Virus record (IMG/VR): IMGVR_UViG_3300033475_000114
Span: 1 to 30,933 of that record
DNA: 30,933 nt
Strand: one strand, 5' to 3'
Source: a virus
Taxonomy: Duplodnaviria > Caudoviricetes
Shown here: in pieces, positions 2,783 to 28,077 of the stretch
Layout of the letters: every line of letters starts with the position of its first letter
Numbering within the stretch: position 1 is the stretch's first letter
Made by a program: the position numbers and the translations under genes
Notes under the pieces: model-generated
The model's database searches: none
The model's input: the letters and a program-made list of their open reading frames with translations, nothing else
What the model was told of the DNA's origin: nothing

Positions 2783-3202
2783 GTGGAACCAGAAATTGTC
2801 CGGAAGTCGCCAATGAATCCTTCGTCAACCGCTGCCTTAACCAGAGAAGCCGCTTGCTACTTGGTCAAACAAGCCGAGTACAAGACCGGCTCCAGAATGG
2901 CAGCCTATGAGATGGTGGCATCAACCGTGGGCACGTCAGCGAGTTGGTTGCGTAAATTCCTCGCAGGCCGAGAAGCAAAAGAGCCTGGGTGGACCACAGG
3001 GTGGAACATTCTCGATCAGTACCGCCGGGTTTGTAGTCGCGTCGAAGCAGAGGTCGAGTTGGAGCGGACCAAGAGACTAGCGCTCAAAGGGCAAATCGAT
3101 GCGATTACTGCGACTTTTGACCGAATGGTGGAGCGAGCGGCGCTTGAGGAAGCAGGACGAGCGCCGGCTGAAAATGCTTCAGGACATGCAGGAACACCAT
3201 AA
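2783..3202 (+). CDS. HTH-like regulator at the cII position
   Basis: AYEMVASTVGTSASWLRKFL resembles an HTH, followed by a coiled coil; start uncertain (2750/2783/2813). Confidence 0.65.
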   Translation: MEPEIVRKSPMNPSSTAALTREAACYLVKQAEYKTGSRMAAYEMVASTVGTSASWLRKFLAGREAKEPGWTTGWNILDQYRRVCSRVEAEVELERTKRLALKGQIDAITATFDRMVERAALEEAGRAPAENASGHAGTP

Positions 3203-3385
3203 ATGGCCGCAGTGAATCGCCTCCCTGTCTTCGTGAGCGATCACGCGGCCGGCATGATGATTGCGCTTTGGTACGCCAAGAAAAATACGAACGAGATCGC
3301 GAAGGCGCTTTCGATTCCTGAATATGAAGTCGCCAACCGACTTCCGATCTTGCGGGCGCGTCACAAGCAGATGCGCGAGAGTTGA
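3203..3385 (+). CDS. Small HTH protein (GcrA N-terminal/sigma region 4-like), 60 aa
   Basis: ALWYAKKNTNEIAKALSIPEYEVANRL; abuts the upstream stop. Confidence 0.6.
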   Translation: MAAVNRLPVFVSDHAAGMMIALWYAKKNTNEIAKALSIPEYEVANRLPILRARHKQMRES

Positions 3386-3404
3386 GTAACTAGGAGGCGG
3401 GGAA

Positions 3405-3929
3405 ATGGTTGCAATTGGATCTGAAGATTACGTCGCCGCGCGGAATCGCAAATCGTGCAAAGCCCTTTTGCATTTGTTGGAATTGCATCATGGTGCTGAG
3501 GAAGTCGCTTCGCAGCCTGTCGAAGTCATCGAGCCCGAACCGATCCCAGCGCCCCCCGTGGAATTGCCTAACGGCTCCGTCCCGGCTTTCAACGCCTTCC
3601 AGGCATGGATTGACAAGTTCGAGCCGCTGCCTGCGCCGACCTATCCCACGATTCACAAGATCAAGCGCTGTGTAAGCGAGCATTTCGGTATCACGGTTCC
3701 CGAAATAGATTCCGATCGTCGGATGAAGAGGGTGGTTAGACCTCGCCAAATCGCGATGTACATCACCAAGAAATTAACACCGCGATCGCTCCCGGATATC
3801 GGCCGCAAGTTTGGCGGCAAAGACCATTCGACGGTGCACCATGCCGTGCACAAGATCGAGAATCTCGTCGAGCATGACGCCGGCTTCGCGGGCGAAATTT
3901 CCATCCTGATGGCAAAGGTGCAGACATGA
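3405..3929 (+). CDS. Protein with DnaA C-terminal (domain IV) DNA-binding domain
   Basis: SDRRMKRVVRPRQIAMY...SLPDIGRKFGGKDHSTVHHAVHKI is the Bac_DnaA_C signature; GGAGG SD; no AAA+ domain. Confidence 0.92.
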   Translation: MVAIGSEDYVAARNRKSCKALLHLLELHHGAEEVASQPVEVIEPEPIPAPPVELPNGSVPAFNAFQAWIDKFEPLPAPTYPTIHKIKRCVSEHFGITVPEIDSDRRMKRVVRPRQIAMYITKKLTPRSLPDIGRKFGGKDHSTVHHAVHKIENLVEHDAGFAGEISILMAKVQT

Positions 3930-5109: not shown

Positions 5110-5894
5110 TGGCCGGTATTGGTCATCTCATCGAACGCATGATCGCGGCTGGCATCTCTCCGGGGGACGCCGGCGCGATCGCGGCTGAGATTTATGCCGC
5201 GGGCGTGGCTTCCGCCTCTGTGCGTTCGGCTGGCGCCGAGAGAACGCGGCGTTGGCGTGAAAATAAAGCGTCACAACGTGACGCTAATCGTCACCAAACG
5301 TCACACTGTGACGCGGAGACTGAAGCGTCACCAATCGTCACAGAGCGTCACAAACCGTCACAATGTGACAATGGCGTTGTTTTGCATAGAGATACTAATA
5401 TTAAAAATAGTAAGAGGCAAAACAGCGATCGACCGTCACGCGGTACACGCATCGATCCGAATTGGATGCCGAGCGAAGCTGACAGGCTGACGGCTCGGAA
5501 CGAAGGGTTCACCGACGCCGAGATCGACCGAGAAGCACTTCGCTTCCGCGATTACTGGGTGGGGCGAGCTGGATCAGGCGGTGTGAAGCTCGATTGGGCG
5601 GCTACATGGCGCAACTGGGTGCGGACATCGGCCGAAAAGCTCGGCAAGACGCCAATACGGCCGGATAGCGCAGCCGTGGAAACTTCGCTGTACCTCGCTA
5701 GATCCGGCAGCGAAGAGCTAGACGCCTGGGATGCCTACACGAAGCAGAGGACTGGCAAGACGCTGCCGCGCAACCGCGACGGTCACTGGCGCGTGCCTGC
5801 GCGTTGGCCGCCTGGCTACACTCCGCAGCCGGCGAAGACGTTCCAGATCCCGGATCTTAGAATGCAGACAATTCCAGCGGGGAAAATCCAATGA
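5109..5894 (+). CDS. Phage replication initiator-like protein (DnaT-like C-terminal FRDYW...DWAATWRNW)
   Basis: AERTRRWRE motif, low-complexity linker carrying iterons, RGTRIDPNWMPS and KLDWAATWRNW motifs; TGATG-coupled. Confidence 0.8.
   Translation: MAGIGHLIERMIAAGISPGDAGAIAAEIYAAGVASASVRSAGAERTRRWRENKASQRDANRHQTSHCDAETEASPIVTERHKPSQCDNGVVLHRDTNIKNSKRQNSDRPSRGTRIDPNWMPSEADRLTARNEGFTDAEIDREALRFRDYWVGRAGSGGVKLDWAATWRNWVRTSAEKLGKTPIRPDSAAVETSLYLARSGSEELDAWDAYTKQRTGKTLPRNRDGHWRVPARWPPGYTPQPAKTFQIPDLRMQTIPAGKIQ
5268..5415. repeat. Iteron array plus AT-rich tract: putative replication origin
   Basis: CGTCAC at 5269, 5289, 5299, 5326, 5336, 5346, 5356; inverted GTGAC(G/A) at 5278, 5308, 5365; then AT-rich ~5378-5415. 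Confidence 0.85.
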
Positions 5895-6412
5895 CGGCTT
5901 TGGGGACAATCGTGAGCAAGCGCAATATCCAGGAATCGGCTTGGTACATCGCTATCACCAATCCGAACTGCCATCGGCGCGCCGAAGGTGGTTTGGCCGA
6001 TCTGGGCTATCCAGCCTTCTGGCCGAAGCTGCGAAAGTGGGTTTCCCACGCTCGCACGAAGGTGCCGAAGGAATACCCGATCTTGGGCCGGTATCTGTTC
6101 GTGGATGTCCCGGACGGCAATTTCTGGGCGGTGCGCAACGTCAACGGGATCGAGGGATTGATCACGGATCAAGACGGTGCGCCGGCCGAAATCCCCGAGC
6201 GGATTGTTTGGCAGTTCCGTGAGCGCTACATGCGCGGGGAATGGGATATGGTTGCGAGCAATCCCGTGCCTGTCGGCGCTCGCATTCAGATCATGGAAGG
6301 CGAGTTTGCGGATTTTCTGACCACGGTGCGCCGGCGCCATCGCGGCAAGCTCGAATTCCTCGCCAACGGGAAATTCTATCAGACGCACGAAAGCAACGTG
6401 AGGGCGGCATGA
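5891..6412 (+). CDS. NusG-family (NGN+KOW) transcription antiterminator at the Q position
   Basis: WYIAITNPNCHRRA...GYPAFWP...YPILGRYLFV...VNGIEGLI and KOW-like VGARIQIMEGEFADF. Confidence 0.88.
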   Translation: MTALGTIVSKRNIQESAWYIAITNPNCHRRAEGGLADLGYPAFWPKLRKWVSHARTKVPKEYPILGRYLFVDVPDGNFWAVRNVNGIEGLITDQDGAPAEIPERIVWQFRERYMRGEWDMVASNPVPVGARIQIMEGEFADFLTTVRRRHRGKLEFLANGKFYQTHESNVRAA

Positions 6413-14086: not shown

Positions 14087-14494
14087 ATGCCCAAAACCCG
14101 CGCCGAACTCATCAATCAGTGCTTGACGAACCTTGGCGTTATTGCCGAAGGGCAGTCGATCGACGCTGACCTGGTGCAGAAGATGGACGGCATTGTCGAT
14201 CCTGCTATAGCCGAATTGGCCTCGCTCGATATCTATTACGTTCAGGATGCGGGCGAGCTGGGGCCGGCTGATGGCGCGATCGAGGATAGCGCGTTTCTGT
14301 CGGTAGCGGCTTATATCGCCAATGCTGCTTGCGCGGCGTTCAACCTGCCGGCAGATCAGAAGCTCCAATCGCTAGCATTGCTGGCAGAGCAGAAGCTGCG
14401 AACGCTCGCAGCGCCAGCACGCACCTTGCGGACCTTGCGGGTTGATCCGGCTGTCAGCCGGCGGTTCTGGCCTTATCGGGGCGGCTTCTTTTGA
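14087..14494 (+). CDS. Head-to-tail adaptor (P22 gp4 position)
   Basis: Position; ELINQCLTNLGVIAEGQS helical N-terminus typical of adaptors; GAGG SD. Confidence 0.7.
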   Translation: MPKTRAELINQCLTNLGVIAEGQSIDADLVQKMDGIVDPAIAELASLDIYYVQDAGELGPADGAIEDSAFLSVAAYIANAACAAFNLPADQKLQSLALLAEQKLRTLAAPARTLRTLRVDPAVSRRFWPYRGGFF

Positions 14495-15912
14495 AAAAGC
14501 CTATTCCGTTTCCGGTTCAGACCGCACCTGGCGCGAAGTCGCAGGAATCCGGCGGCCGGATCATCAACGGCTATGCGGATGCGTTAGGAGCGCAGGCGCC
14601 GAGCCAGACGGTCATTCGCCGCGGGCCCGGATTGGTGAATTTCGGAACGTCGGCGAGGTCCGGTTTCCGCGGTTCGATCCTGGTCAATGATGTCCTGTAT
14701 GTCGCCTTCAGCGGCAAGCTGGAGAAATGGAGTTCGGCCGGCGGCGCGTCGACCAGCATCGGCAATCTGAACGGCACCAAGCGTGGCTTTTTCGCGGCCA
14801 ACAACAATACGACGCCGGATCGCGTGTTTGTCGATCCTGATGGCAATATCGCGGTTTTCACGGAATCGTCCGTTACGAACTCCTATCCGGATGCCGATCT
14901 TCCATCGGTCAACTCGGTCGACTTCCTCGACGGCTATCTGGTTTTCACGACGGGCGACGGGCGCGCGTTTGCAACCGATCTTAACTCGACGTCGGTTAAT
15001 TCGCTGTCCTTTGGCAAGGCTGAGGCCAAACCTGATGGCTTGGTGCGGGTGGTCGCGTGGGGCGGTCGCCTGTTGTTCATGGGCAACGAGACGATTGAAG
15101 TCTGGACGGATGCGGCGACTGTTCCGTTCCCGTTCGCGCGCAGCAATGTCATTCCGCGTGGCCTCGCTGGCCCTTACTGCGTCTCAGGCTATGAGGACGG
15201 CTTTTCGCGGGGGCCGATCTTCGTCGGTGATGACAACTGCGTCTATGCGCTGGAGGGCTACACGCCAACCAAGGTTTCGACCACTGATCTGGATGGCCTG
15301 ATCGAGGCCGTCACCGACAAGACGACGCTCGAGGCTACCTCGTTCATGGCGAGGGGTCATGCGTTTTGGCAGTTGTCTTGCCCGGCGTGGTCATGGGTTT
15401 TGGATATCTCGACCTCGCAATGGTTTCAGGCTGACAGTTACTTGCAACTGCGATCGCGGCGCGCCGGCGCGATCAACGCCTATTCCATGTGGCTGACCGG
15501 CGACACCCAGACCGGCAACCTGCAGCAGATCATCACGTCCGCCAATGATGAGGTAGGAGATCCGCTCAGGCTCAGGATCGAGAGCGGCCCGGTGATGAAT
15601 TTCCCGGGTGGAACTACGGTCGGGCGCGCTGATTTCTATTTCGTCACCGGTGTTGGCATCGCGACGGGCCGTGACCCTGATCAAACCGATCCGGACGTCG
15701 AAATCTCGTGGTCGGACGATGGTGGCTTGACCTGGAGCAATCCGATCTTGCGCAAGCTCGGCCGTCAGTCAGAACCGAAACAGCTTATCTCCCTCGTGTC
15801 CTGCACGGGCCGCACGGGCTGGGAGGGGCGCCGCTGGCGGCTTGATGTCTCCTCGGCTGTCTATGGCGCGTTTCTGTTTGGCACGATGTCCGACGATCCA
15901 AGGGCTGTCTGA
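14491..15912 (+). CDS. Tail hub / packaged-DNA stabilisation protein (P22 gp10-like)
   Basis: 473 aa beta-rich; FLDGYLVF, AEAKPDGLV, ETIEVW, TGVG, ISWSDDGGLTWSN; TTG start overlapping the upstream stop. Confidence 0.88.
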   Translation: MKKPIPFPVQTAPGAKSQESGGRIINGYADALGAQAPSQTVIRRGPGLVNFGTSARSGFRGSILVNDVLYVAFSGKLEKWSSAGGASTSIGNLNGTKRGFFAANNNTTPDRVFVDPDGNIAVFTESSVTNSYPDADLPSVNSVDFLDGYLVFTTGDGRAFATDLNSTSVNSLSFGKAEAKPDGLVRVVAWGGRLLFMGNETIEVWTDAATVPFPFARSNVIPRGLAGPYCVSGYEDGFSRGPIFVGDDNCVYALEGYTPTKVSTTDLDGLIEAVTDKTTLEATSFMARGHAFWQLSCPAWSWVLDISTSQWFQADSYLQLRSRRAGAINAYSMWLTGDTQTGNLQQIITSANDEVGDPLRLRIESGPVMNFPGGTTVGRADFYFVTGVGIATGRDPDQTDPDVEISWSDDGGLTWSNPILRKLGRQSEPKQLISLVSCTGRTGWEGRRWRLDVSSAVYGAFLFGTMSDDPRAV

Positions 15913-20469: not shown

Positions 20470-20496
20470 GAAAACGCCAACGCAGTAGATCAACAG

Positions 20497-20524
20497 GGCC
20501 GCTCGCAAGGGCGGCTTTTTCTTT
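20497..20524 (+). terminator. Intrinsic terminator before the fibre module
   Basis: GGCCGCTC-GCAA-GGGCGGCT-TTTTCTTT. Confidence 0.85.
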
Positions 20525-20533
20525 GAGGCCTCA

Positions 20534-21565
20534 ATGATCTTCAAACGTCTCACCGTCGCGCTCGCGGCGCTCTTTGCGCTGGCTGGACCTGCCTTCGCCT
20601 CGGGCACCATACCATTCAGCCTGTCCCAGCAGTTCGACCAGTTCGGCAAACCTCTGGCGGGATGCCTATTCTACACAATCCAGGCGGGTACGACCAGCAC
20701 CCCGCAAAACGCCTTTCAAGATAGTGCGTTAACGATTCCGCTTCCGAACCCGCAGACTTGCGACGCGGCCGGCCGTTTGCCTCAGATGTTCCTGGCCGAC
20801 GGGACAATCAAGGTCCGGCTGACTGACAAGAACGGAACCGCAATTCTGGTTGTCGACAATATCCAGGTTGTCGGCGCGTCGTCCGGCTCAGGTGGTGGCG
20901 GCACGGTCGATCCGACCACGATCCTCGCCACGGGTGACATCAAGGTTACCTACGGCACCGGCACGATTTCAGGATTTGTCCGAGCCAACGGTCGCACGAT
21001 CGGATCTGCGAGTTCAGGCGCAACTGAGCGAGCCAATGCTGATTGCCAAGCGCTCTTTGAGGATCTCTGGGATGCTGATGCGAACCTAACCGTCTCCGGT
21101 GGTCGAGGAGCGACAGCGGCAGCGGATTGGGCCGCAAACAAGCAGCTAACATTGCCGGACATGCGCGGCCGCACAATCGCCGGCCTTGATGATATGGGCA
21201 ACACGGCTGCGGGAAGACTTACATCGACCTATTTCGGAGCAACTCCTACCCTTCTGGGTGCTGGAGGCGGCGCACAGAACCACACGCTCAGCGCTTTCGA
21301 GATTCCTCAAATTCTCTCCACCAATGAAGGCAACACCACCATCAGTGGAAATACGTCTGGTATTCCTTCGGGAGATCAGGGTCATAGCACGACTGGTGGT
21401 GGCAACATCAACGTTGATACTTATGAAAATCCAATAAACCAAGGCTACGCGGTTACATCCACTCTCGGGACTCATACGTTGGATATCCGATCGGATAACA
21501 CCGGCGGCCAGCCGCATTCGATCGTTCAGCCTACAATGCTCGCCACCATCTATATCAAGCTCTGA
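20534..21565 (+). CDS. Tail fibre/appendage protein with virion-attachment N-domain and tail-collar-like domain, preceded by a signal peptide
   Basis: QQFDQFGKPLAG...AGTTSTP...NPQTCDAAGR; GFVRANGRTI, LPDMRGRTIAG, GGGAQNHTL, GGQPHSIVQPT..YIKL; N-terminus MIFKRLTVALAALFALAGPAFA. Confidence 0.85.
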   Translation: MIFKRLTVALAALFALAGPAFASGTIPFSLSQQFDQFGKPLAGCLFYTIQAGTTSTPQNAFQDSALTIPLPNPQTCDAAGRLPQMFLADGTIKVRLTDKNGTAILVVDNIQVVGASSGSGGGGTVDPTTILATGDIKVTYGTGTISGFVRANGRTIGSASSGATERANADCQALFEDLWDADANLTVSGGRGATAAADWAANKQLTLPDMRGRTIAGLDDMGNTAAGRLTSTYFGATPTLLGAGGGAQNHTLSAFEIPQILSTNEGNTTISGNTSGIPSGDQGHSTTGGGNINVDTYENPINQGYAVTSTLGTHTLDIRSDNTGGQPHSIVQPTMLATIYIKL

Positions 21566-21574
21566 GGGCTCGCG

Positions 21575-21916
21575 ATGTCCATCACCCTCAACAGCGCTCA
21601 GCCGAATAACGCAGACTGGAAAACGCAATTCCAGTTCACGGATGGCGAAACGGGCGACCTGATCGATTTCACAGGCGCCGATATCGAAATCGTGGTTCGA
21701 GATCATGACCGTTGCCATCGGATCACGGCATCGACAGACAACGGTATGATCTCGATTATTTCGGCCGGTGTCTTTGAACTCGACGTTCCCGCGAGTTCGA
21801 TGGAGTGCTTGCGGCCGGGAAGCTATGAAATTGGCGGTGTCTACCAGTTGAACGGCGAAACGATCTCGCTGTTCACCGGCTCGCTCTCGATCATCAACGG
21901 GGTTGCGCGCCTATGA
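21575..21916 (+). CDS. Ig-like tail adaptor (BppU N-terminal-like)
   Basis: FTDGETGDLIDFTGADIEIVVRD...STDNGMI...LRPGSYE...LFTGSLSIINGV. Confidence 0.65.
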   Translation: MSITLNSAQPNNADWKTQFQFTDGETGDLIDFTGADIEIVVRDHDRCHRITASTDNGMISIISAGVFELDVPASSMECLRPGSYEIGGVYQLNGETISLFTGSLSIINGVARL

Positions 21917-22467
21917 CGACGCCCCTTCTCAAGATCAAGATATTCCCTAAGCCGGTCATCAAGGGGAAGATGGATGTCCGTTTCCCGGCGAATGTCCAAA
22001 CCAAGAACTTCCTGACGGTCGATCGCTCGAACGGGGTTTATACGTTCGATGTAGATTATTCCGTCTTAGAAGAGATAACATCGTTTGATCCAAGCCAAGA
22101 GCTGATTGCGGTCCAAGGTCGTTCCGGTATTTGGAATCTCCTCAGTCTGGCGACCTTGTTTTCTATCACGACGCAAACTGAACAGCACATAACGAGTGCT
22201 GGGCCGGTCACGATAACTAACACTGCCGGCATCGTTCGCGTCGATCAAACGGTCGGCGCGCCCATCACTCTAACGTTGCCTTTAGCGTCGGACAAAACCT
22301 GTCCTGTGTTGATCGCGGATTGGAAAATGGACGCTGGAACCAACAATATTACGTACGAGACTTCCGGCAGCGACACGTTCCCCGGCGGTCTTACAAGCCG
22401 AAAACTTCGCGCAGATGGCGCGAGCGTATTTCTCAGGCCGATACCTGGAGTTGGCTACGCGCTATGA
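21913..22467 (+). CDS. Tail fibre-associated adaptor protein
   Basis: C-terminal ITLTLP...LIADWKMDAGTNNIT...GSDTF beta domain common in fibre proteins; ATGA-coupled. Confidence 0.7.
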   Translation: MTTPLLKIKIFPKPVIKGKMDVRFPANVQTKNFLTVDRSNGVYTFDVDYSVLEEITSFDPSQELIAVQGRSGIWNLLSLATLFSITTQTEQHITSAGPVTITNTAGIVRVDQTVGAPITLTLPLASDKTCPVLIADWKMDAGTNNITYETSGSDTFPGGLTSRKLRADGASVFLRPIPGVGYAL

Positions 22468-23909
22468 ACTGCCTCCATAAGCTTCTTCTCGCGGCTGCTT
22501 CGGCAGCCTTTTTTATTGCGCCCATCCAAGCGCAGAACGCGGGCACGGTTACGAACCATGCCTTTGCGATCGGTGCCGGCTCCGGCAACGACGGCTATAC
22601 GTCGCTTCTCTGCACATCAGCCCAGCTCGCCGTAGGACAGGCATCCGCTGATCCAATCTGCCAGACAATTACGGGCGATGTGACGATATCGGCGGCCGGC
22701 GTCACGGCGATCGGATCGACCGTCGTTCATTCGTCGATGCTTAATGCTGACGTGTTTTCGACTGCGCATAGCTGGAGCGGGCAGCAGACCTTTACCGCGC
22801 CCGTGCTCGGCACGCCCGCTTCTGGCACTCTGACGAACGCCACGGGCTTGCCAATTTCGACGGGCGTTTCCGGCCTCGGTACTGGCGTTGCGACGTTCCT
22901 TGGCACCCCAAGCAGCGCAAACCTTAAGACCGCTGTGACGGATGAAACTGGATCTGGATCGCTCGTCTTTGCGTCCTCGCCAACTCTCGTAACTCCAGCC
23001 CTTGGCACTCCGTCCTCCGGCGTTCTGACCAATGCAACCGGTCTCCCGATCTCAACTGGCGTAAGCGGGCTTGCAACGGGCATCGCGACGTTCCTGGGAA
23101 CGCCATCAAGCGCCAATCTGCGCGCAGCATTGACCGATGAAGTCGGGACCGGCGCGGCCTATTTCGTCGGAGGTGCGCTCGGAACGCCTGCTTCCGGCAC
23201 GGCAACTAACCTGACAGGTCTCCCTCTAACGACTGGTGTTACGGGGACGCTTCCAAAGGCAAATGGCGGCCTTGGTGCTACCACGCTCAGTTCTGCGCTC
23301 GACACTGAATTCAGCGCGACACAAGGAAGCGTCCTTTATCGTAACGCCACGCAGTGGGTAGCGTTGGCTCCCGGCAGCGCGGGTCAATTCCTCACGACCC
23401 AAGGAACCGGTGCGAATCCAAATTGGTCATCTGGTGGCGCCGGAACTGGTACGGTTACTTCGGTCACATGCTTTGGAACGGCAATCACTGCGTCTGGTAC
23501 CTGCACGACAGCAGCAACCAAGTCGGATCAACAGACCGGAACCAGCACAACCGCTGTAGTTACGCCATCGATTCAGCAGCAGCACCCCAGCGCCGATAAG
23601 GCAGCTGGCTACTTCACCGTAGCAAGTGGAGTCGTTACCAGTAAATATATGTACAACGCGTCTGTGGCGAGAAGCTCTAACGGCATCTTTGTCATCACCT
23701 TCACGACGCCGTTCGCGAATACGAACTACGGTTGTGTAGTGACTCCTGAAATTAACGGATCAACGACCGATGGTGCGTTCGCGTTTGTATTGCCGAACGC
23801 TACCGTAGCGCGGACCACGACACAGGTTCAGATCCGCTTCGTCAATCAGCCGATGACGGCCGCGACCGATCCACTAGGCGCCGATTTCAGGTGTTTCGGC
23901 GATCAGTAA
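22464..23909 (+). CDS. Tail fibre protein with internal repeats and signal peptide, 481 aa
   Basis: Start at ATGA 22464 (MNCLHKLLLAAASAAFFIAPIQA); G/T/S/A-rich; GSVLYRNATQW...GQFLTTQGTGANPNW; C-terminal NGIFVITFTTPFANTNY domain. Confidence 0.85.
   Translation: MNCLHKLLLAAASAAFFIAPIQAQNAGTVTNHAFAIGAGSGNDGYTSLLCTSAQLAVGQASADPICQTITGDVTISAAGVTAIGSTVVHSSMLNADVFSTAHSWSGQQTFTAPVLGTPASGTLTNATGLPISTGVSGLGTGVATFLGTPSSANLKTAVTDETGSGSLVFASSPTLVTPALGTPSSGVLTNATGLPISTGVSGLATGIATFLGTPSSANLRAALTDEVGTGAAYFVGGALGTPASGTATNLTGLPLTTGVTGTLPKANGGLGATTLSSALDTEFSATQGSVLYRNATQWVALAPGSAGQFLTTQGTGANPNWSSGGAGTGTVTSVTCFGTAITASGTCTTAATKSDQQTGTSTTAVVTPSIQQQHPSADKAAGYFTVASGVVTSKYMYNASVARSSNGIFVITFTTPFANTNYGCVVTPEINGSTTDGAFAFVLPNATVARTTTQVQIRFVNQPMTAATDPLGADFRCFGDQ
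22796..23260 (+). repeat. Coding tandem repeat in the fibre shaft (two ~64-aa units plus a partial third)
   Basis: LGTP[AS]SG..TN.TGLP..TGV occurs three times; ATFLGTPSSANL..A.TDE.G twice; boundaries approximate. Confidence 0.85.
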
Positions 23910-23934: not shown

Positions 23935-23959
23935 GCCGCCTTCGGGCGGCTTTTTCTTT
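23935..23959 (+). terminator. Intrinsic terminator before the lysis genes
   Basis: GCCGCC-TTCG-GGCGGC-TTTTTCTTT. Confidence 0.88.
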
Positions 23960-24694: not shown

Positions 24695-24946
24695 GTGTGG
24701 AACTCTAACACTTTCCACAACGCGGCGAATATTGCCAGCCTGCTTCTTGCGGCCGGCACCGCTGCGTTGCTCGCCTCTGGCTGCAGCCAGTCTGCAACCG
24801 GAGTTTTCGACTGCTCGCATTCCTGGATCAACCCGACCTACACCACGGTAGCGATCGGCGTCCTCCAGGCGGCAAAGCTCACCGTCAACATGGTTCGCGA
24901 CGGCCTTGGCGGTCTCGTGAAGCCCCAGCCTCCGGTTTTGAAATAA
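24695..24946 (+). CDS. Holin-like two-TM protein
   Basis: GGAG SD, GTG start; two hydrophobic segments flanking a C-x9-C loop; lysis cluster position. Confidence 0.65.
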   Translation: MWNSNTFHNAANIASLLLAAGTAALLASGCSQSATGVFDCSHSWINPTYTTVAIGVLQAAKLTVNMVRDGLGGLVKPQPPVLK

Positions 24947-24955
24947 GGAGATATC

Positions 24956-25351
24956 ATGCGCAAACATCTTGCCGCAGTGCTCGTGCTCGGCTTGGCTCTC
25001 GGCGGCTGCGCTTCCGAGCTGCAGAAGCTTAAAACCGTCTATTCGGTCGTCACCGATACAACGGTTTCGCCGTCCACAATCATCGTGGCGGCCAACTCAT
25101 TCGATGCACTGGAGGCGACGGCAACGCAGTACCTGACCTATTGCAAGGCCAATCTGTCGACCTCGGCCTGTTCAGCCGACAATCGCCGGACGGTCATCAA
25201 GGCAGTCCGCGCCGGCCGAGCGGCGCGCAATCAGCTTGAAACCTACGTCACCAACAACACTGCGGCGCCGAGCGCGATCTACAACGCCCTCGTTGCTGCG
25301 ATCAACACCCTGAACACTTCTGCCGCTGCTACCACGGGAGCCTCGAAATGA
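24956..25351 (+). CDS. Lipoprotein, spanin candidate
   Basis: MRKHLAAVLVLGLALGG-C lipobox; AAGGAG SD; helical body. Confidence 0.8.
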   Translation: MRKHLAAVLVLGLALGGCASELQKLKTVYSVVTDTTVSPSTIIVAANSFDALEATATQYLTYCKANLSTSACSADNRRTVIKAVRAGRAARNQLETYVTNNTAAPSAIYNALVAAINTLNTSAAATTGASK

Positions 25352-25644
25352 CCGCAGCACTTACCGCCGTCCTCGCTCTCATTGAGCAGATTCTGCCGCT
25401 TCTCGGTTCGAGCCAGGCCAACCTGATCGCCTCGATCATCGATGCCCTGACCAAATGGCTCCCGCTGATCATTCAGGAAGTTTCGGCGCTATACACGCCG
25501 GTAAAGAACATCATCGAGGCGCTGTCAGCCAATCCGGCAACGACTGCCGATCAGCTCGCCACGCTGCAGCAACTCGACGCCCAGGTCGATACGGCTTTCG
25601 AGGCGGCGGCGGCTGCGGTCGATCCTGACGCGCCTGCGGCCTGA
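25348..25644 (+). CDS. Amphipathic helical protein, putative lysis accessory
   Basis: ATGA-coupled to the lipoprotein; Leu/Ala/Ile-rich. Confidence 0.75.
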   Translation: MTAALTAVLALIEQILPLLGSSQANLIASIIDALTKWLPLIIQEVSALYTPVKNIIEALSANPATTADQLATLQQLDAQVDTAFEAAAAAVDPDAPAA

Positions 25645-25771
25645 AACAAGACGGCCCGGCTCGACGTTTGCAGACGCTGAGCCGGACCTAACCCTCTCAA
25701 CGCGTAATAGGCGTCAAACAGGGCTGGGAAATTCCTAGCGCGCAATCGTTAACAGGCTGGGAATTCTTGGA

Positions 25772-26143
25772 ATGGATAATTCGACATTAGCCGTGATCTT
25801 TGCCGGGGCGACGTTTGCCATGCTTATTGGGCAGCGGATCTTTGGCGGCGGCTGGAACTTATCGAAGAACCTTCAAGCCGTCGAGGCAAGGCTCATGTCC
25901 GAGATCAAGGAATCGAGGGCGGAAATCGAAGGGCGTCAAGAGACGGTCGCTCACGACTTCGGCGAGACGGTTGCCGCCCTCAAGGAGCATGTTCGCCAAG
26001 TCGAGTTTCATATTCGAGACAACTACATCCGAAAGGATGATTTTGTTGTTCATATGAAGCAGCATGACGATCTGTTGCGGGTGAACTTCGCGAGCCTGAA
26101 CTCACGGCTCGAGCGCATCGAAAAGCACCTCGACAGCAAATAA
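25772..26143 (+). CDS. N-terminal TM plus coiled-coil protein (lysis-associated)
   Basis: TM ~6-25; NYIRKDDF...RLERIEKHLD. Confidence 0.75.
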   Translation: MDNSTLAVIFAGATFAMLIGQRIFGGGWNLSKNLQAVEARLMSEIKESRAEIEGRQETVAHDFGETVAALKEHVRQVEFHIRDNYIRKDDFVVHMKQHDDLLRVNFASLNSRLERIEKHLDSK

Positions 26144-26166: not shown

Positions 26167-26565
26167 GTGCTAAAAACCGTCCTTGCGGCGGCGCTGGCTG
26201 TATTGTGCCTCGCGTCGAACGCCGAAGCTCGGCCTCGGCATCATCATCGGCATGTTGCCACGTTTGGGCGCGTTGTAGCCCATCCTATCGGATGCCCGCC
26301 AGTCTCATTCTGCGGCTGCGGGGCTGCTGTTCGTGTATTCGGTCATTCCATCCGAAAGCTCTGGCTAGCCGCGAACTGGTTTCACTTTCCACGCACCGCC
26401 CCAGCTCCGGGTATGGTCGCCGTGCGCCGGCATCATGTCTTCGTCCTTGAAGCTCGCCTCGGGCGAGGTGTCTGGCGCGTCTACGACGCCAATTCCGGCC
26501 ATCATCTTACCCGCGTTCACGCGCGCTCAATTGCAGGCTTCGCAATCGTCAACCCGTTTGGCTGA
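26167..26565 (+). CDS. Secreted CHAP/papain-fold-like peptidase (putative)
   Basis: Signal peptide ending AEA; FCGC, LAANW, APGMVAVRRHHVFVL, YDANSG give a Cys-His-Asp/Asn order; AGGA SD, GTG start. Confidence 0.7.
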   Translation: MLKTVLAAALAVLCLASNAEARPRHHHRHVATFGRVVAHPIGCPPVSFCGCGAAVRVFGHSIRKLWLAANWFHFPRTAPAPGMVAVRRHHVFVLEARLGRGVWRVYDANSGHHLTRVHARSIAGFAIVNPFG

Positions 26566-26796: not shown

Positions 26797-28077
26797 ATGT
26801 CCGTATATAACTCGATTGAAACGCACTCAGCGTACAAGTCGACCTTTCCACGCATAGCGCCGCTGGCAATGACTATAGTCGCCGCCTTCCTTTTGGCTGC
26901 GCTATTTGTCTTTATGCTTGCCCAGCCATTCGAGCGCACGGACGATCTTTTATGGCTGGATAAGCTCAGAACCGAAAGCTGGGCTTCCATGCCATTTGTT
27001 GCGGCATGGGAGGCTACGAGCAACTTCTATCGTCCTGTAGCAGAAGCGGTTCTTAAATTATGCTTTGACGGATTCGGGCTTGATCCGGTGCCGTACCGCT
27101 TCGTTCAACTGGCGCTGCTTCTTGCTCTTATAGGCGTCTGCTATTCTTTCCTACGAAAGATTGGCACTTCACGCGAAGCAATTCTCATAGTTCCCGTGTT
27201 CTTCATCGGATCTCCGTTCATTAACGGATCGATCATATGGCTTGCAGAAATACCTCATGTGATGGTTCTGCTGTGTTTTGCGGGAGCCCTTCTCGCGCTT
27301 GTCTCGGACTTCTCCGAGAACAAAAAGCTGATTATCTGCTGCTCATGCCTCTTTATAGCGATGTTGAGCAAGGAGAATGGCTTAGCGCTCGCCGCCTTGG
27401 TCATTTACTTTTTGCCTACGTCAATTAGGTGGCGAGCCATCATAGCGTTTGCTGGTTTTGTTTTATGCTACTTTGCTGCGCGATATCTCGTTCTTCAGCA
27501 TATTGCGGGAAGTCCATCTGAGGATGTTGGCTATTTCTTTAACAGCCTTTCTCCCAAAGAGGTTCGGAGTCAATTTCCTGGCGCCAGCATCATTTTTCTT
27601 TACGGATACAACGTGTTGGCACAGGTTGCCGCGCTCTGGTTTCGCATCACAAAATGGGGACTGGTGATCCACGAAAGGTACTACGAAGTAGCGCTACACG
27701 CCGCGTGTACTGCCATCATCGTTTCCTGGTTATGGTCGAGACGGAACATAGATCGTGTGACTGCCGTCATCCTCGTCGTCGCGCTATTCGGCGTTATTTT
27801 TTCCTACGCCTACGCGAGAGATAGGCACCTTGCTCTCCCAGCGTTGGCGTATGGGCTCTTGCTGGTGACCGCTGTCGATCGCCTTAGTGTTTCGTGGCGA
27901 CAGTACGCGATTTTATTCGTCTATATTGCATGGTCAGCGCAGGCTGCGATCCAGATTATAGACTTGCACCGCAGCGTGGTAGACCAAGACAGATTTTATG
28001 AACGCAATTTGACGCCTGCTAATGATATGGTTCAGCAGGACATTTGGTCTGCAGCAAGATCATGGGCGACACAATAA
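26797..28077 (+). CDS. Polytopic membrane protein, GT-C-type glycosyltransferase-like moron
   Basis: Many TM helices; DD after TM1, FYRP, LSKE motifs; visibly AT-richer codons; start may be 26869. Confidence 0.7.
   Translation: MSVYNSIETHSAYKSTFPRIAPLAMTIVAAFLLAALFVFMLAQPFERTDDLLWLDKLRTESWASMPFVAAWEATSNFYRPVAEAVLKLCFDGFGLDPVPYRFVQLALLLALIGVCYSFLRKIGTSREAILIVPVFFIGSPFINGSIIWLAEIPHVMVLLCFAGALLALVSDFSENKKLIICCSCLFIAMLSKENGLALAALVIYFLPTSIRWRAIIAFAGFVLCYFAARYLVLQHIAGSPSEDVGYFFNSLSPKEVRSQFPGASIIFLYGYNVLAQVAALWFRITKWGLVIHERYYEVALHAACTAIIVSWLWSRRNIDRVTAVILVVALFGVIFSYAYARDRHLALPALAYGLLLVTAVDRLSVSWRQYAILFVYIAWSAQAAIQIIDLHRSVVDQDRFYERNLTPANDMVQQDIWSAARSWATQ

Follow-up and report, generated by a model that had tools for sequence, protein, structure and literature searches.

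Tailed phages are taught to build all of their virion parts in the cytoplasm, with the cell envelope involved only at lysis. Why, then, would a tailed phage begin two of its fibre genes with signal peptides? The question is posed by positions 20534–23909 of IMG/VR record IMGVR_UViG_3300033475_000114, a 30.9-kb virus record of a P22-like soil podophage that was analysed over its whole length and is here called the window, its genes being named by their first position. In this four-gene module the outer genes, 20534 and 22464, both begin with n/h/c signals of the signal peptidase I (SPase I) type and the two adaptors between them, 21575 and 21913, are signal-less, as a sequence-only reading had pointed out. 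Sec export and signal cleavage of both outer proteins are very probable from the sequence comparisons described here, and we assign a probability of about 0.68 to the fuller reading that the two proteins are exported, fold with disulfides in the periplasm and join virions at or just after breakdown of the inner membrane. The parts of the module are:

20525..20528, + strand: GAGG ribosome-binding site of 20534, 5 nt 5′ of the ATG
20534..20599, + strand: 22-residue Sec/SPase I-type signal of the tailspike anchor, predicted cleavage AFA|SG (family comparison)
20600..20875, + strand: P22 gp9-type head-binding domain (residues ~23–114) with Cys44/Cys76 (profile, fold search)
20906..21565, + strand: tail-collar/T4 gp10 C-terminal-like part of 20534 (domain matches)
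21575..21916, + strand: signal-less Ig-like adaptor (BppU_N-like) with Cys47/Cys78 (model, fold search)
21913..22467, + strand: signal-less fibre anchor, its C-terminal domain (~90–184) like CBA120 TSP4 XD1 (profile match)
22464..22532, + strand: 23-residue Sec/SPase I-type signal of the distal fibre, predicted cleavage IQA|QN (family comparison)
22533..23909, + strand: mature distal fibre, with docking N-terminus, repeat shaft and C-terminal tip domain

Gene 20534 (20534–21565, + strand) encodes 343 residues that start MIFKR-LTVALAALFALAG-PAFA|SG. The next in-frame ATG, GTG or TTG is codon 82 (TTG) or 85 (ATG), within the head-binding domain, which bears out the earlier claim of a GAGG Shine–Dalgarno site with no in-frame start between signal and attachment domain. 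Signals were called by a custom n/h/c rule (basic n-region, uncharged h-region, A-x-A c-region), a heuristic and not SignalP, which was positive in 57 of 100 relatives of 20534, 21 of 21 relatives of 22464 and, for the lipoprotein 24956, 2 of 2 relatives, but in none of the 334 relatives of 12 late genes nearby that encode neither fibre nor lipoprotein; its false positives were three anchor-type β-strand N-termini (L069, L108 and L118) in a separate gene-chain listing. For the family comparison, proteins and loci were pooled and reduced at 90% identity, the genome loci coming from a profile scan that gave 48 where an earlier single-protein scan had given none. Twelve loci with frameshifted, ambiguous or non-ATG starts were dropped (L003, L010, L014, L015, L019, L042, L080, L092, L102, L114, L124 and L133), 16 duplicate loci were left out of locus-level counts, L033, an unrelated motif match, was removed from the fibre counts, and P0062, P0110, P0119 and the fibre of L151 were assigned as signal-bearing by eye.

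Among the resulting 195 non-redundant relatives of 20534, 154 have a signal and 41 are signal-less and start exactly at the cleavage site; for the best 120 protein matches the corresponding figures are 117 and 3. The motif at which signal-less relatives start fixes the cleavage site independently, and relative to it position −1 is Ala, Gly or Ser in 152 of the 154 signals, position −3 is Ala, Val, Ser, Cys or Thr in 151, and position −2 is never Ala. The leader is 19–23 residues long in 150 of the 154, with Pro at −4 in 62. Lipobox, Tat and SAR features were not found: the +1 residue is Ser/Ala or Gln, there is no conserved RR, and A-x-A is kept. A signal is likewise present, by our own heuristic, in 31 of 32 family members of 22464.

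The signal state nevertheless varies within the 20534 family, switching at least 13 times on a FastTree tree whose deep support is weak, and it does so independently in the two genes: L020 and L111 combine a signal-less 20534 orthologue with a signal-bearing fibre, and L009, L056 and L078 show the reverse. On these sequences, predicted export is an optional trait of each gene that has been repeatedly gained or lost. L003 looks like signal loss caught in progress: a stop interrupts what remains of the signal, a new GAGG and GTG lie where the mature protein begins, and the Cys pair is missing. A frameshift or stop in or just after the signal-coding stretch of the 20534 orthologue is also seen in L080, L010, L092, L102 and L114; in loci other than L003, the frameshifts may be assembly errors or decayed prophages.

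The cysteines of both proteins track the signal. Cys44 and Cys76 of 20534 occur together in 133 of the 154 signal-bearing relatives, are both absent from 21 and never occur singly; none of the 41 signal-less relatives has both, 4 have one and 37 have neither. The unpaired Cys171, taken as a control, shows no link to the signal (67 of 154 signal-bearing versus 24 of 41 signal-less). After correction for the tree, 9 independent pairs go 5.6 the same way and 0 the opposite way (median p 0.031, range 0.031–0.125), versus 0.3 and 3.0 for Cys171 (p 0.25), and the signal-less proteins of L085, L104 and L111, which are nested among signal-bearing rows, retain one Cys only. Mature 22464 has the six cysteines counted earlier, at 50, 66, 336, 347, 424 and 477, the seventh, Cys3, lying inside the signal. 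They are laid out as an N-terminus with Cys50/Cys66, a shaft repeat common to signal-less fibres, Cys336/Cys347, and a tip with Cys424/Cys477. Cys50 and Cys66 are both present in 24 of 31 signal-bearing members, both absent from 7 and never single, and signal-less L093 has neither; all 6 of the other tip domains from signal-bearing proteins have Cys424 and Cys477, both of which signal-less L094 lacks. Two of the pairs proposed by the sequence-only reading, 50/66 and 424/477, thus co-occur. Fibres with a signal have 1.55 cysteines per 100 residues (27 rows) and fused fibres without one have 0.42 (29 rows), the rows not being independent. The cleavage-site pattern, the signal-less relatives that start at this site and the dependence of the Cys pairs on the signal all support export with disulfide folding, as had been suggested.

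What would be exported at the head-proximal end? The N-terminal part of 20534 is, by profile and model, a P22-type tailspike head-binding domain. Its profile matches in the PDB are 9vyg (E 1e-9) and 7eeq (E 1e-8), with an offset of ~21 residues that corresponds to the leader length of 20534. In a fold search with the 20534 model, whose predicted local distance difference test score (pLDDT) is ~90 over residues 30–110 and 64 overall, ranks 1–6 are all tailspike head-binding domains: Pam1 at rank 1 (Z 11.3, root-mean-square deviation (rmsd) 7.6, 96 aligned), Sf6 (7sg7; Z 9.6, rmsd 2.9, 85 aligned), P22 (8tvr; Z 9.4, rmsd 2.3, 84 aligned, with two further P22 rows at Z 9.3 and 9.3) and Pan3 (Z 8.8, rmsd 2.5, 80 aligned). 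The β-helix glycanase body of the whole P22 tailspike was not found in 20534, whose C-terminal part is collar/gp10_C-like, with a feature score of 0.95 to Collar PF07484 clusters (Atlas), Gp10_C in 5 of 63 family members and a match to the phrog_8763 tail protein (E 2e-52). Within the window 20534 is the sole head-binding gene, as it is in 58 of 58 signal-bearing loci (36 of them having 5 kb or more to either side) and in all 5 complete genomes examined. It is the single gene after the ejection genes within a P22-type portal/coat/hub module, a position that corresponds to that of gene 9 in P22.

The tailspikes P22 gp9, Sf6 gp14, Pam1 and Pan3 (8tvr, 7sg7, 7eeq and 9vyg) share with 20534 both the head-binding fold and the position 3′ of three ejection genes. 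Unlike 20534 with its ~21-residue offset, however, P22-type chains begin at the head-binding domain without a leader, and where they have a β-helix enzyme, 20534 has the collar module, with an arm of three more genes beyond it. In P22, spikes can attach to already completed heads in extracts. The Sf6 tailspike binds the tail hub and is added as the last factor, according to the accessible part of PMC9728967, which fits attachment at lysis. In the native P22 tailspike all eight cysteines are described as reduced (PMC3357383, accessible part), in contrast to the disulfide proposed here for Cys44/Cys76. An isolated podophage, Pam5 (ON014757), has an orthologous cassette, gp16–gp17–gp18, of which gp16 and gp18 are marked as virion proteins detected by mass spectrometry in PMC9382816 Table S2, as far as this source is accessible. 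Pam5 gp16 has neither signal nor Cys pair, whereas 20534 has both, and gp18 is one signal-less anchor-plus-spike chain of 536 residues, here split into 21913 and the signal-bearing 22464. At L133 9960–10765 (Pam5 gp19 and gp20), two small signal-bearing, Cys-containing genes lie right after the tail spike; they encode unrelated proteins.

How would the distal fibre be held? The adaptor 21575 is modelled with a pLDDT of 94, and its best fold match is the T5 tail-tip chain 7qg9_R (139 residues; Z 11.3, rmsd 2.3, 107 aligned), which we take to be the fibre-collar protein p132; the search also matches TP901-1 BppU (4v96/3uh8), BppU_N is found in 4 of 55 family members (best E 0.006), and a PDB sequence search returned noise only. 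Stop-codon readthrough from 20534 into 21575, the two being in frame in the window, was considered as an export route for the adaptor and rejected, because the relative frames 0, 1 and 2 occur 17, 9 and 13 times over 39 adjacent signal-bearing loci. The C-terminal domain of 21913 has a weak profile match to residues 101–164 of 7rfv (CBA120 TSP4; E 0.0017). Relatives of 21913 take two forms. In one, a long signal-less fibre or spike is part of the same chain (29 rows of at least 300 residues, including Pam5 gp18); a member of this form, P0156, also has the shaft repeat of 22464. The other is short (160–190 residues), and the gene after it bears a signal in 21 of 22 loci, the exception being L093, which has the same fibre N-terminal motif with no signal and no Cys pair; a 77-residue anchor fragment in L118 was left out of these counts.

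Gene 22464 (22464–23909, + strand) encodes 481 residues, of which 23 form the signal, so that the mature N-terminus reads QNAGTV; its start is coupled to 21913 by an ATGA overlap, as read earlier. The tip domain matches the phrog_11355 tail fibre (E 2e-4), a homologue search with it returned only 22464 itself, and a PDB sequence search with 22464 gave noise only. In L094 (~3091–3640), a signal-less open reading frame of 184 residues lies 5′ of the spike gene and apparently joins a small needle-position protein to a 22464-type tip with no Cys pair. The complex with 21913, which the sequence-only reading had put forward for modelling, was built from three copies of 21913(60–184) and three of 22464(24–105), and in it the 22464 N-terminus docks with a score of 0.89 versus 0.00 for the best of 3 controls. 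The runs agree in at least 96% of contacts, the partner pLDDT is 93, and the modelled interface on the fibre comprises the first mature residues, 24–29, plus residues 38–47. In a calibration that applies only approximately to a model of this kind, the score mark was reached by 116 of 157 solved and by 2 of 215 mismatched pairs; PDB sequence searches found no solved complex like that of 21913 and 22464. The C-terminal domain of 21913 is thus the predicted docking site of the mature 22464 N-terminus. The predicted docking would resemble that in the branched receptor-binding complexes CBA120 TSP1–4 and G7C gp66/gp63.1, where one trimer is held by a T4 gp9/gp10-like module belonging to a second. 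In CBA120 TSP4, XD1 is an internal spacer and XD2 and XD3 are the docking sites (PMC8825819, accessible part), whereas in 21913 the XD1-like domain ends the chain and is itself the predicted dock. The accessible text of the same source mentions no export for the CBA120 and G7C complexes; 22464, by contrast, bears a signal.

Has such a route been described? Titles and abstracts yielded no exported tail fibres in tailed phages, in keeping with the earlier statement that no well-characterised pathway of this kind is known, though subscription papers or unseen supplements could hold one. One of the two nearest parallels is pIII of the filamentous phages (M13/fd), a receptor-binding protein that has a Sec signal and folds with disulfides in the periplasm, like the proposal for 20534 and 22464. 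It retains a membrane anchor at its C-terminus and enters the virion during extrusion, with no lysis; 20534 and 22464, in contrast, have no hydrophobic anchor in either mature sequence, look soluble, and belong to a phage with a P22-type head, hub and lysis genes. The other is the Bdellovibrio MAT proteins, which are trimeric and phage-fibre-like and carry signal peptides, so that such folds can mature after export (PMC10769870, accessible part). They are bacterial surface adhesins, with a shared β-rich N-domain and an S74 chaperone, and not virion parts, unlike what is proposed here. The accessible part of PMC3556154 holds nothing relevant to prior art.

The signal-coding DNA of the fibre holds a second feature. 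The module is flanked by two terminator-like sites, as the sequence-only reading had stated, and a third terminator-like hairpin, which it missed, lies within the module; a probable antiterminator gene is found further upstream, the product of which would read through the late terminators:

5891..6412, + strand: NusG/RfaH/UpxY-type antiterminator (UpxY E 4.7e-11, below the family cut-off)
20495..20518, + strand: intrinsic-terminator-like hairpin closing the ejection-protein genes, 5′ of the module (10-bp stem, T-run)
22493..22514, + strand: terminator-like hairpin (6 bp, UUCG loop) and T6 in the signal-coding DNA of 22464 (hairpin scan, relatives)
23935..23950, + strand: intrinsic-terminator-like hairpin between fibre and lysis genes

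At −10 kcal/mol or below, the element is present in 23 of 31 fibre relatives versus 4.8 ± 1.8 expected from synonymous shuffles, and at −7 kcal/mol in 24 versus 13.1. Phe codons are TTT:TTC 48:11 in codons 11–22 versus 171:314 elsewhere in the fibre genes. Across the 24 relatives chosen for having the hairpin, 94.4% of cells are paired, with 5 double changes (0 of 500 shuffles), a pairing control that related sequences can beat. A similar element is found at 8 of 189 neighbouring gene starts, and the excess in 20534-family signals is weaker (21 of 58 versus 9.3 ± 2.5 expected). By these sequence counts, the hairpin at 22493–22514 is kept beyond protein-coding need. It is likely an attenuator that would limit synthesis of the fibre except where it is bypassed, either by the late antiterminator 5891 or by a translating ribosome coupled via the ATGA overlap. 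Because 7 of the 31 fibre signals lack the element and still have the n/h/c form, the element does not explain the signal away. By eye, the 20534 signal DNA at 20554–20575 folds into a 6-bp hairpin with a decayed T-run, of which 21 of 58 relatives have intact versions. An origin of the 20534 signal from an intergenic terminator was considered and is not supported: internal and upstream terminators in this family are not significantly exclusive (p 0.16), and their T-runs lie mostly 29 nt versus 20–25 nt before the mature start. Titles and abstracts held nothing on terminators within signal-coding DNA, although subscription papers or unseen supplements could hold some.

It might be argued from this element that the leaders are an untranslated terminator region that merely reads as Ala, Leu and Phe, with the true start downstream. 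The fibre's hydrophobic core is indeed encoded by a hairpin and T-run under nucleotide-level selection, and 21 of 58 signals in the 20534 family have a similar element. Yet the window's own 20534 signal is not called as a terminator, the terminator-free fibre signals keep their form, signal-bearing genes have no start codon where the mature protein begins, and the reading frame, the basic n-region and A-x-A persist over 154 sequences, with Cys pairs that follow the signal; this explanation is very improbable. Less easily dismissed, though unlikely, is that the signals are real but leaky, a late share of each protein staying in the cytoplasm and assembling normally while the exported share is surplus or a free decoy. 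Signal-less forms do occupy the same gene slot, with at least 13 switches, and cytoplasmic assembly must therefore work in the family; the new start in L003 and the 21 signal-bearing proteins that have no Cys pair point the same way. However, the Cys pair is found in none of the 41 signal-less relatives and decays to a single Cys upon signal loss, the −3/−1 pattern is strict with no internal start codon, and mature fibre residues 24–29 lie within the predicted interface.

Somewhat less likely again is that the exported proteins never join virions and instead serve, either at the envelope or once released, as adhesins, as lysogenic-conversion factors or as decoys that mask receptors. Bdellovibrio does export its signal-bearing, phage-fibre-like MAT adhesins (PMC10769870, accessible part), and the signal-bearing gp19 and gp20 of Pam5 are not marked in the accessible part of the virion mass-spectrometry table. 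Such a role would, however, leave the phage without a tailspike anchor; no membrane anchor, lipobox or autotransporter part was seen, the genes lie in the late operon at the place of P22 gene 9, and the fibre retains a predicted dock for a cytoplasmic protein. We prefer virion joining because 20534 is the sole head-binding gene, its Pam5 orthologue is found in virions, and docking of the fibre is predicted.

Several observations weigh against export followed by late joining. The adaptor gp17 and the signal-bearing gp19 and gp20 of Pam5 are not marked as found in virions in the accessible part of PMC9382816 Table S2. The signal-bearing form was not encountered in any isolated phage: of 50,697 records, 8 match 20534, the only full-length match being signal-less Pam5, and none matches 21913 or the 22464 N-terminus. 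The query bore a signal, which biases the sample of 195 towards signal-bearing forms, so that its proportions are not prevalences. Disulfides cannot be the sole reason for export, because 21 of the 154 signal-bearing relatives of 20534 lack the Cys pair. That Cys44 and Cys76 are neighbours is our assumption from the transthyretin-like/CnaB fold, their distance not being readable from the model, and an even number of cysteines, tried as an export marker, does not discriminate (24 of 27 versus 20 of 29). A Cys pair (47 and 78/80) is also seen in the signal-less adaptor 21575, in 30 of 40 loci whose 20534 orthologue carries a signal versus 2 of 30 others; because of this similar link, shared ancestry could drive part of the Cys–signal association, although on the tree the adaptor link is not significant (p 0.125 and 0.5, with too few pairs). 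Either oxidation at lysis or ancestry may account for the adaptor pair, which export alone does not explain. As to docking, 21913 and 22464 correspond to the two parts of a split gene, and pairs of this kind tend to pass complex modelling. Finally, a four-link chain that alternates between compartments would have to be completed in a lysing cell.

The setting of the module is that of a P22-like phage. Terminase 8049, P22 portal 9596, scaffold 11916, P22 coat 12794 and the adaptor-sized gene 14087 are followed by a gp10-like hub, a 68-residue gene, three ejection-type genes and the 20534–22464 module, 3′ of which lie a CHAP/TIGR02594 endolysin-like gene and then membrane proteins. The hub is:

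14491..15912, + strand: P22 gp10-like tail hub (PF11134 E 5e-7; phrog_578)

It is the expected cytoplasmic binding site of 20534, and none of 75 relatives has a signal. Close relatives of 20534 are found in Bradyrhizobium, Rhodopseudomonas, Rhodoplanes, Afipia and other Hyphomicrobiales genomes, and the host of the phage is therefore probably within Hyphomicrobiales. Elsewhere in the window, a lysis-type cluster without family matches (24695–26143) comprises the two-helix membrane protein 24695, the lipoprotein 24956 (lipobox LALGG|C), the amphipathic 25348 and the membrane-anchored coiled-coil protein 25772. A late-region gene at 26167–26565 has a signal-like start, MLKTVLAAALAVLCLASNAEA, a His/Arg-rich stretch and several cysteines, with no family match. 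A multi-membrane-spanning protein of 426 residues with no family match is encoded at 26797–28077, 3′ of a strong terminator, in a layout that we take to resemble that of a surface-polysaccharide-modifying glycosyltransferase, and the early region (3405–3929) encodes a protein with a DnaA C-terminal helix-turn-helix domain (PF08299, E 3e-28).

Put together, the module would be a branched host-recognition arm of a P22-like podophage, the first and last links of which would be exported via the host Sec system. The chain would run from hub 14491 through 20534 (exported), 21575 (cytoplasmic) and 21913 (cytoplasmic) to 22464 (exported, with the tip domain). We infer the order hub–20534–21575–21913, and the 21913–22464 contact from the complex model. 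In the periplasm 20534 and 22464 would fold with disulfides, and they would snap onto the cytoplasm-built particle when the inner membrane gives way at lysis. The likely benefit is that oxidative folding makes the fibres more stable and that they are kept away from the assembling heads. We lean, with more reserve than for late joining itself, towards the still wider picture of a two-compartment tailed phage, in which heads, hub and adaptors are cytoplasmic, the disulfide-bonded spike and fibre are periplasmic, lysis is the last assembly step, export is gained and lost gene by gene, and the embedded terminator meters the Sec load. The parts are known folds, and what would be new is the route of export. 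New here are the comparison with and without signal in one family, the signal on the sole head-binding anchor, the docking model and the embedded terminator. The family is a natural experiment, one gene with and without a signal in cultured lysogens, among them Rhodopseudomonas sp. B29 (L017), in which both genes bear signals, and Bradyrhizobium sp. C9 (L007), which has the signal-bearing anchor. If the proposal is true, Sec, signal peptidase and Dsb would be host factors for phage infectivity, lysis timing would be tied to virion maturation, such fibres would need different expression for study, and temperate phages that are common in Bradyrhizobium and in soil Alphaproteobacteria related to it would complete their virions across the inner membrane.

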